A stretch of DNA of 64,000 nucleotides from Escherichia coli (lineage in GTDB: Bacteria > Pseudomonadota > Gammaproteobacteria > Enterobacterales > Enterobacteriaceae). Where the stretch lies: assembly GCF_051903065.1 (NCBI RefSeq), contig NZ_CP178438.1; one strand, 5' to 3'. Positions within the stretch are counted from its first letter, which is position 1. Each line of letters starts with the position of its first letter. The notes beneath the pieces are model-generated. The model made no database searches, was not told where the DNA came from, and was given only the letters and a program-made list of their open reading frames with translations. The position numbers and the translations under genes are program-made. Positions 37,036 to 37,202 of this stretch are shown in pieces.

Positions 37036-37069
37036 AAAAGCGGCCATTTTGTGGCCGCCTGCGGTTGAT

Positions 37070-37178
37070 TGCCGGATGCGGCGTAAACGCCTTATCCGGC
37101 CTACATGATCGTGCAAATTCAATAAATTGCAGCGTTCTGTAGGCTGGATAAGATGCGTCAGCATCGCATCCGGCAAAG
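37070..37178. repeat. BIME (two inverted REP elements)
   Basis: tgccggatgcggcgtaaacgccttatccggcctaca and inverted gtaggctggataagatgcgtcagcatcgcatccggca between convergent aslB and aslA. Confidence 0.75.
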
Positions 37179-37202
37179 GCAGATCTCAGCGATAGCGCCG
37201 GC

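Follow-up and report, generated by a model that had tools for sequence, protein, structure and literature searches.

The aslB/aslA spacer and the convergent junctions of the window

The 64,000-nucleotide stretch of DNA analysed here (the window) is part of an E. coli chromosome with the gene order hdfR-ilv-rep-rho-wec-aslBA-hem-cyaA-uvrD-recQ, and the 801 bases around the site under study are 100% identical to the E. coli aslB/aslA junction. Over its full length the window is collinear with NZ_AP045789.1 (4448746-4512745): there are two substitutions as far as position 40838, followed by a 6-nt difference in the length of a GGTGCA (Gly-Ala) tandem repeat inside hemX (40764-40859). Because of this collinearity, gene coordinates were taken from the annotation of that near-identical record, minus 6 after 40839.

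REP and BIME elements have been known in E. coli since the 1980s, i.e. for about 40 years. In the window, aslB (end 37035) and aslA (start 37203) converge on a spacer of 167 bp, which holds, in this order, a unique hairpin, a Y-type REP, a 34-nt linker, a 37-nt REP and then 27 nt before aslA and its stop codon. The earlier note on this DNA had placed two inverted REP copies between the two genes; both are present, head to head (CTAC...GTAG), and form one BIME. The left arm is the Y-type REP, 35 nt long, at 37070-37104 (TGCCGGATGCGGCGTAAACGCCTTATCCGGCCTAC). Its GTAG lies on the minus strand, so that on the plus strand it reads as an “iREP” ending in CTAC. Of 34 positions, all but one agree with the published consensus GCCGGATGCGGCGTGAACGCCTTATCCGGCCTAC (quoted in PMC12306157), and the folding energy of its hairpin is -20.9 to -21.3 kcal/mol (z about -4 to -5). 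Between the two REP heads, at 37105-37138, stands a 34-nt linker of the L type, the conserved linker of BIME-1 elements: it carries the invariant 19-mer GCAAATTCAATAAATTGCA at 37113-37131, and in an alignment the BIMEs at rnr/rlmB, downstream of tkt, at ugpB/livF and at sbp/pfkA have the same Y REP and the invariant linker core GCAAATTCAATA(A/T)ATTGCA. Within this linker, ATTCAATAAATTG at 37117-37129 matches 12 of the 13 positions (one mismatch) of the IHF consensus WATCAANNNNTTR, and on this motif match the L linker is a probable IHF site. We note that a table in PMC6907758 seems to exchange the IHF and H-NS motifs. The right arm, at 37139-37175 on the plus strand, is a 37-nt z2-like REP (GTAGGCTGGATAAGATGCGTCAGCATCGCATCCGGCA) that starts with GTAG and forms a hairpin (-19.8 kcal/mol) interrupted by a 2x2 internal mismatch. 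For the spacer as a whole the folding energy is -83 to -87 kcal/mol, with a z of about -8.

So stable a fold would be compatible with the spacer being the gene of a small regulatory RNA or small protein of which the palindromes are parts, the more so as some REP clusters, e.g. REP325, are reported to yield nucleoid-associated RNAs (PMC6907758). However, a scan of positions 36500-37700 found no promoter-like site, no Rfam family reached its gathering score in the spacer, and a credible ORF was not found there, the only candidates being TTG-start ORFs of 22-25 codons and one antisense ORF overlapping aslB. In addition, the repeat modules account for the full sequence. We therefore rejected a small ORF or sRNA in this spacer on the promoter, Rfam and ORF scans, and regard such a gene as highly improbable. 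Over the whole window, the Rfam scan at gathering score returned no REP family; what it did return was GlmZ, the ilv leader region (Rev39 5’UTR), the trxA thermometer and four tRNAs. That no REP is annotated at aslB/aslA is uninformative, because the K-12 RefSeq record has no REP repeat_region features at all, even at ~5565-5669, where older versions of the record presumably had one. A literature search on aslA/aslB together with REP found no papers, and a search for supplementary tables giving REP coordinates found none.

By annotation count the window has 65 adjacent gene junctions, 9 of them convergent (including glmZ/hemY), 10 divergent and 46 co-directional. According to the earlier note, palindromes punctuate convergent gene pairs, and the four pairs that it named are indeed all annotated as convergent: besides aslB/aslA, these are ilvA/ilvY (ilvA end 9757, ilvY start 9809, 51-bp spacer), rep/gppA (rep end 15540, gppA start 15587, 46-bp spacer) and uvrD and a SAM-hydrolase (DUF62) gene, with stop codons at 57116-57118 and 57173-57175. 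One strong hairpin is found in each of the nine convergent spacers. It is a REP or BIME at three (ilvA/ilvY, rep/gppA, aslB/aslA), a palindrome of REP tails at uvrD/DUF62, a weak REP-like hairpin at cyaA/cyaY, a textbook bidirectional terminator (A5-stem-T5) at maoP/yifB, and a unique hairpin at ilvC/ppiC, glmZ/hemY and corA/yigF. Bona fide REPs thus occur at 3 of 9 convergent junctions and at 0 of 56 others (hypergeometric P ~0.002, calculated by hand), a value that carries the caveat that in many co-directional spacers there is no room for any element.

The REPs at rep/gppA and ilvA/ilvY are single. At rep/gppA, the earlier note had given 15544-15578; the REP is there, and its extent is corrected to 15542-15578. 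It is z2-like, lies on the plus strand, has the head CAAG instead of GTAG, and folds at -20.2 kcal/mol with a 3x3 internal loop. Its likeness to the right arm of the BIME, described as near-identity in the earlier note, amounts to 33 of 35 bases (94%) between 15544-15578 and 37141-37175. At ilvA/ilvY, a REP had been reported at 9766-9800. Its presence stands and its coordinates do not: the element is a short, z1-like REP of 31 nt at 9765-9795 on the minus strand, with a head that matches GTAGGCCTGATAAG exactly and an extra T, through which the internal mismatch shrinks to a one-nucleotide bulge. The feature at 37040-37190 is, with high confidence, one BIME made of a Y REP, an L linker and a 37-nt z2-like REP, and 15542-15578 and 9765-9795 are, at the same confidence, single REPs.

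Two observations concern the gene content around these junctions. A toxin gene of the PemK/MazF family occupies 12853-13302, between ppiC and rep, and an adjoining antitoxin is not annotated in the reference. Two direct repeats of 171 nt (50163-50333 and 51245-51415; 92% identical, 1,082 nt apart) bracket a DUF3304 gene. They border a block of hypothetical genes, located between cyaY and lptM, that K-12 probably lacks, and may be a duplication made by an insertion.

REP family membership and gene-specific hairpins

A REP profile was built from eight REPs at four other E. coli loci only and run over the window with nhmmer at maximum sensitivity. It found four full or near-full copies and no further such matches: 37104-37070 on the minus strand (E = 1.8e-7, full length), 9795-9765 on the minus strand (E = 3.6e-6, full length), 37139-37175 on the plus strand (E = 1.5e-4, full length) and 15544-15578 on the plus strand (E = 0.019, model positions 3-30). 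A scan for REP sequence was the check that the earlier note had proposed for its reading, and this independent profile recovers four copies, at E = 2e-7 to 0.02. A scan for half-sites with up to 3 mismatches was uninformative by itself, with 7 matches against 6 expected, and only the matches with 0-1 mismatch coincide with REPs. The dispersal of each copy was then counted in 5,426 complete E. coli genomes (blastn, E<=1). The Y copy (37070-37104) has relatives at at least 40 places per genome, the ilvA copy (9765-9795) at a median of 38, the z2-like copy (37139-37175) at a median of 23 and the L linker alone at a median of 8. REP relatives occur by the tens in 5,425 of the 5,426 genomes. As a test for locus-unique sequences, this genome-wide census shows that the four REP copies are not unique.

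The copies also have the structure of REPs. They are 31-37 nt long, and their folding energy is -15 to -21 kcal/mol whichever strand is folded, with z from -4 to -5 on both. The features that define a REP are a GTAG 5’ of the stem foot and a two-base stem mismatch (PMC3333891). GTAG is found in three of the four copies (37104-37101 on the minus strand, 37139-37142 on the plus strand and 9795-9792 on the minus strand), the fourth having CAAG at 15542-15545. The mismatch is a 2x2 loop in the Y copy and in the 37-nt copy of the right arm, and is reduced to a bulge in the ilvA copy. Across 14 REPs compared, outer stem pairing is kept through compensatory G-C to U-A double changes. All REP copies fall between annotated genes.

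These are the traits of the E. coli REP/PU family: imperfect palindromes of 30-37 nt with a GTAG foot and an internal stem mismatch, extragenic and present in hundreds of copies, with an outer stem GCC(G/T)GAT...ATC(C/A)GGC in which G/T and C/A covary. The window differs from the family norm in the CAAG head of the rep/gppA copy and in the extra T, and so the one-nucleotide bulge, of the ilvA copy. By type, 37070-37104 is y, 37139-37175 and 15542-15578 are z2-like and 9765-9795 is z1-like. In the two long copies the inner stem reads ATGC...GCAT, through compensatory changes from the z2 inner stem ACGC...GCGT; the assignment of types rests partly on comparison with this and the other REP type consensuses. 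The REP and BIME copies of the window are thus ordinary members of a known family, and the observation of them is already known.

These hairpins could also be gene-specific, possibly bidirectional Rho-independent terminators that resemble one another only in being GC-rich. In favour of this, all nine convergent spacers hold one strong hairpin, some of them clearly unique (e.g. maoP/yifB), and the aslB/aslA spacer itself does hold one unique hairpin with a T-run. REPs and Rho-independent terminators have GC-rich stem-loops at 3’ ends in common. However, REPs are repeated by sequence and lack a U-run: no T-run follows any REP of the window on either strand, and only 37060-37038 on the minus strand fits a Rho-independent terminator. 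What the copies share is sequence and not structure alone, with 33 of 35 bases in common between two loci and profile E-values down to 2e-7, and they recur tens of times per genome. The terminator reading is thus refuted for the four copies and, as a general account of the palindromes, is very unlikely; it is the better one only for the hairpin at 37032-37060 and possibly for the uvrD palindrome. That these elements are a dispersed repeat family and not gene-specific terminators, as the earlier note had held, is borne out by profile similarity, copy number and a shared BIME architecture.

The hairpin at 37032-37060 is not a REP. It was found by the terminator scan on the strand of aslA (minus), has a GCGGCCA/TGGCCGC stem followed by a T6 run, and reads GCGGCCA-TTTTG-TGGCCGC at 37040-37058. 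On the minus strand (37060-37038) it is a 9-pair stem and then T6, the latter overlapping the aslB stop codon. For aslA it is placed downstream of the BIME and abuts the aslB stop codon. It occurs as a single copy, and 3,954 of the 5,426 E. coli genomes have it. In K-12 and E. whittamii the sequence next to the aslB stop is 9 nt shorter and has no hairpin (window 37026-37060 against L001 1183-1210); a 9-nt indel by the aslB stop codon thus makes or removes the hairpin. The hairpin with its T-run is probably the real end of the aslA transcript. If aslA transcripts end there, the whole BIME lies within the aslA 3’ UTR. The spacer therefore comprises a repeat-family element plus an adjoining gene-specific, terminator-like structure.

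Downstream of uvrD, the earlier note had listed a further REP palindrome at 57132-57163. The palindrome present there, at 57130-57166, is a perfect one of 16 bp (-31.8 kcal/mol), made of two REP “tail” arms, TGCCGGATGCG and CGCATCCGGCA, and does not qualify as a canonical REP. It has neither GTAG/CTAC nor the internal stem mismatch typical of REPs, and recognition by TnpA-REP needs both GTAG and the stem mismatch (PMC3333891). Only the tail half of the REP profile matches it (57132-57164), on both strands, with E = 0.03 and 0.12. In an E. coli genome it occurs at a median of 2 places and the REP copies at tens; the second place, considered as a possible self-match, is instead the z2 REP at yhaL/cyuA, with which it has only loop and tail in common. 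The stop-to-stop segment between uvrD and yigE varies by strain: in the window (57119-58160) it holds the palindrome and the 918-bp DUF62/SAM-hydrolase gene, and this palindrome-bearing form occurs in ~3,678 of 5,426 genomes. K-12 (L010 647-792) lacks the DUF62 gene, and its uvrD-yigE spacer of 146 bp holds a degenerate iREP, an L-like linker (TCAGATTCAATAAATTGCA) and a Y REP. The palindrome has its first 15 nt in common with the left of these REPs, and its last 16 nt are close to the tail of the right one, which suggests that the palindrome may be a collapsed BIME. It is derived from REP tails, is essentially single-locus and should be dropped from the list of canonical REPs. For annotation, true REPs can in this way be told apart from the look-alike palindrome downstream of uvrD.

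A hairpin that the earlier note did not list fills the 39-bp cyaA/cyaY spacer (46603-46632, GCCGGAAAGCGAGGCTTATCCGGC). Its arms are GCCGGA...CTTATCCGGC, with no CTAC, and it matches the head half-site with 2 mismatches and folds at -18.2 kcal/mol. The profile matches it (46605-46632) in part on both strands, with E = 0.47 and 3.7. Its membership in the REP family is doubtful; it may be a decayed REP.

Class and orientation of the aslB-aslA BIME

Three kinds of BIME have been described (PMC3333891). BIME-1 elements combine y and z1 with a long, well-conserved L linker, often with an IHF site, and are single-copy. BIME-2 elements combine y and z2 with a short S linker and form tandem arrays. “Atypical” BIMEs are chimeras of the y, z1, z2, L and S modules, in multiple tandem copies. 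The aslB-aslA element resembles BIME-1 (also RIP/RIB, the IHF-binding BIMEs) in being a single head-to-head pair with a Y REP and a conserved L linker with an IHF-like site, and differs from it in that its partner REP is the 37-nt z2-like one and not a 30-nt z1. As the right-hand REP is not z1, the behaviour documented for BIME-1 may not carry over exactly. With BIME-2 it has the y and z2-type REPs in common, and it departs from that class in having an L and not an S linker and in being a single unit. The preference of gyrase is documented for BIME-2, not for L-linker BIMEs (PMC6379681), and because of the L linker and the single unit it cannot be assumed at aslB-aslA. The mixed modules y - L - z2-like are those of an atypical BIME, the difference being one copy here against the multiple tandem copies published. 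The inverted REP doublet is also one that can fold as one long hairpin, the unit acted on by TnpA-REP, as in REPINs mobilised by RAYTs. The window, however, contains no tnpA-REP gene; the one of E. coli is reported between yafL and fhiA (PMC3333891).

How common is this combination? Among the matches listed in a scan for the linker core in one genome per species, 94 of 107 complete L-linker elements (~89%) have a 30-nt right-hand REP and 6 of 107 a 37-nt one, 3 of these 6 being the aslB-aslA locus in other genomes. The aslB-aslA element is thus a y-L-z2 chimera, a BIME-1-like “atypical” BIME of uncommon form made of wholly known modules. An annotation of the spacer can label this rare chimera as such and locate the likely real terminator of aslA. 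The linker core is multi-copy, among the matches listed, in E. albertii, E. whittamii, three other Escherichia, E. coli and Pseudocitrobacter, and the matches listed in unrelated taxa are single, have no flanking REP and were taken as chance. Short contigs assigned to Desulfosporosinus, a Bacteroides MAG, Alkalicoccobacillus, a Collinsella MAG and Methylobacterium (L026, L028, L091, L092 and L093) carry perfect Escherichia-type BIME-1 elements, most likely through contamination of these assemblies with E. coli. L-linker elements also occur in a tandem array of seven copies with a 107-nt period in Escherichia sp. MOD1-EC7003 (L130 2700-3450) and in two copies in L007 (400-640), L074 and L127, against the single-copy description of BIME-1.

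The 106-nt core of the aslB-aslA BIME (REP - linker - REP) is inverted in E. whittamii and in E. coli E69 and EC42405 (window 37070-37175; flipped or compared loci L065 7620-7760, L102 4540-4690, L132 1517-1623 and L133 3017-3124). When aligned in gene orientation, the flanks are identical and Y-L-z2 is replaced by z2-L(inverted)-Y in E69 and E. whittamii. The core of the window is 93.4% identical to the flipped alleles after reverse-complementing, against 76.6% in the same orientation, the flanking genes being 94-95% identical. Both alleles have the rare y-L-z2 composition and locus-specific linker bases in common. The same flanks, an identity of 93% against 77%, and the common composition and linker bases together argue for a single ancient flip and against two insertions. 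With a query specific to the junction, the flipped allele was detected in 49 of 5,426 complete E. coli genomes, those of the O145:H28 lineage among them; the unflipped junction is matched at 99% identity or more in 4,155 E. coli records. In O145:H28 the flipped allele lies in a mosaic patch, in which identity to the window is 93.5-94% at the 3’ end of aslB and 99.5-100% on the aslA side. Ongoing switching was therefore rejected, since the patch fits an old allele moved by recombination, and indicates that the old flip spread in this way. All four combinations of the hairpin indel and the BIME flip occur. Among the matches listed, 16 orthologous L-linker BIME loci are represented in at least two genomes, and 2 of the 16 are found in opposite orientations; the second differing locus sets E. 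albertii apart from other Escherichia (L019 against L050, L112 and L131).

These sequence comparisons raise the possibility, which we advance tentatively, that BIMEs can invert in place and that such a flip took place at aslB-aslA. Possible routes to inversion are recombination at short homologies, a template switch within the quasi-palindrome and strand exchange by TnpA-REP. If inversion between the REP arms were regular, it would swap the REP type that each convergent mRNA receives and turn the IHF site around. The opposite orientation of the aslB-aslA core in some Escherichia lineages may be new: the searchable literature, by which the key 1997 work on BIME polymorphism is not covered, gave no description of BIME inversion or orientation polymorphism, and we claim no novelty. 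The polymorphism offers a small, concrete lead on REP/BIME evolution. In one strain with the flipped allele, E. coli 2018-05-2CC (L134 685-1838), aslB is truncated by an insertion of ISApl1 (IS30-like).

Proposed function at the convergent junctions

The identity of the elements follows from the sequence and structure described above; what they do at these loci we infer from the family. REPs have been described as attenuating transcription, stabilising mRNA, acting as topological insulators and binding IHF, Pol I and gyrase (PMC3333891, PMC6907758, PMC6379681). A convergent gene whose transcription runs into a REP of the window would carry that REP in the untranslated 3’ end of its mRNA, where the stem-loop would hinder 3’-to-5’ exonucleases and attenuate read-through into the opposing gene. 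As they have no U-run, REPs are not efficient intrinsic terminators alone. The L linker would act at the DNA level, as a predicted IHF site. The copies would owe their seeding and reshuffling to the REP-associated Y1 transposase (TnpA-REP/RAYT) or to recombination among them, and would not have evolved gene by gene. With CAAG where GTAG is expected, the rep/gppA copy may have ceased to be a substrate of TnpA-REP.

The same elements could instead be purely selfish, non-autonomous mobile DNA (REPINs moved by RAYT/TnpA-REP) without host function, which settle at convergent gene ends as harmless sites. This reading concerns function only and gives the elements the same identity as the preferred one. 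It would account for the way in which presence and form vary by strain, e.g. after uvrD, where K-12 has a BIME and the window a palindrome and an extra gene, and for the occurrence of the aslB-aslA BIME in both orientations across lineages with unchanged flanking genes; TnpA-REP also cleaves and recombines BIMEs in vitro (PMC3333891). On the other hand, the aslB-aslA BIME is kept at the same site in E. coli, Escherichia sp. E1V33, E. whittamii and E69, and ~5,000 E. coli records match the unflipped junction at 95% identity or more. REPs have moreover been reported to affect mRNA stability, termination, translation and supercoil diffusion. We therefore consider a wholly selfish nature unlikely and prefer a role of the REPs at the 3’ ends of the convergent transcripts.

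Part of this proposed role would depend on the distance between stop codon and stem. REPs closer than 16 nt to a stop codon are reported to reduce translation, as PMC12306157 summarises from its reference 17. The stem begins 8 nt past the stop codon of ilvA and 5 nt past that of rep, and ends 9 nt before that of gppA; all three distances are within 15 nt, and at these genes the REP stem could also lower translation. The distances for ilvY (17 nt), aslB (35 nt) and aslA (28 nt) fall outside this range. By these distances, the rep/gppA REP is in range of both stop codons and the BIME of neither. For annotation, ilvA, rep and gppA can thus be placed in the class of genes with a REP within 15 nt of the stop codon, a position reported to lower translation.
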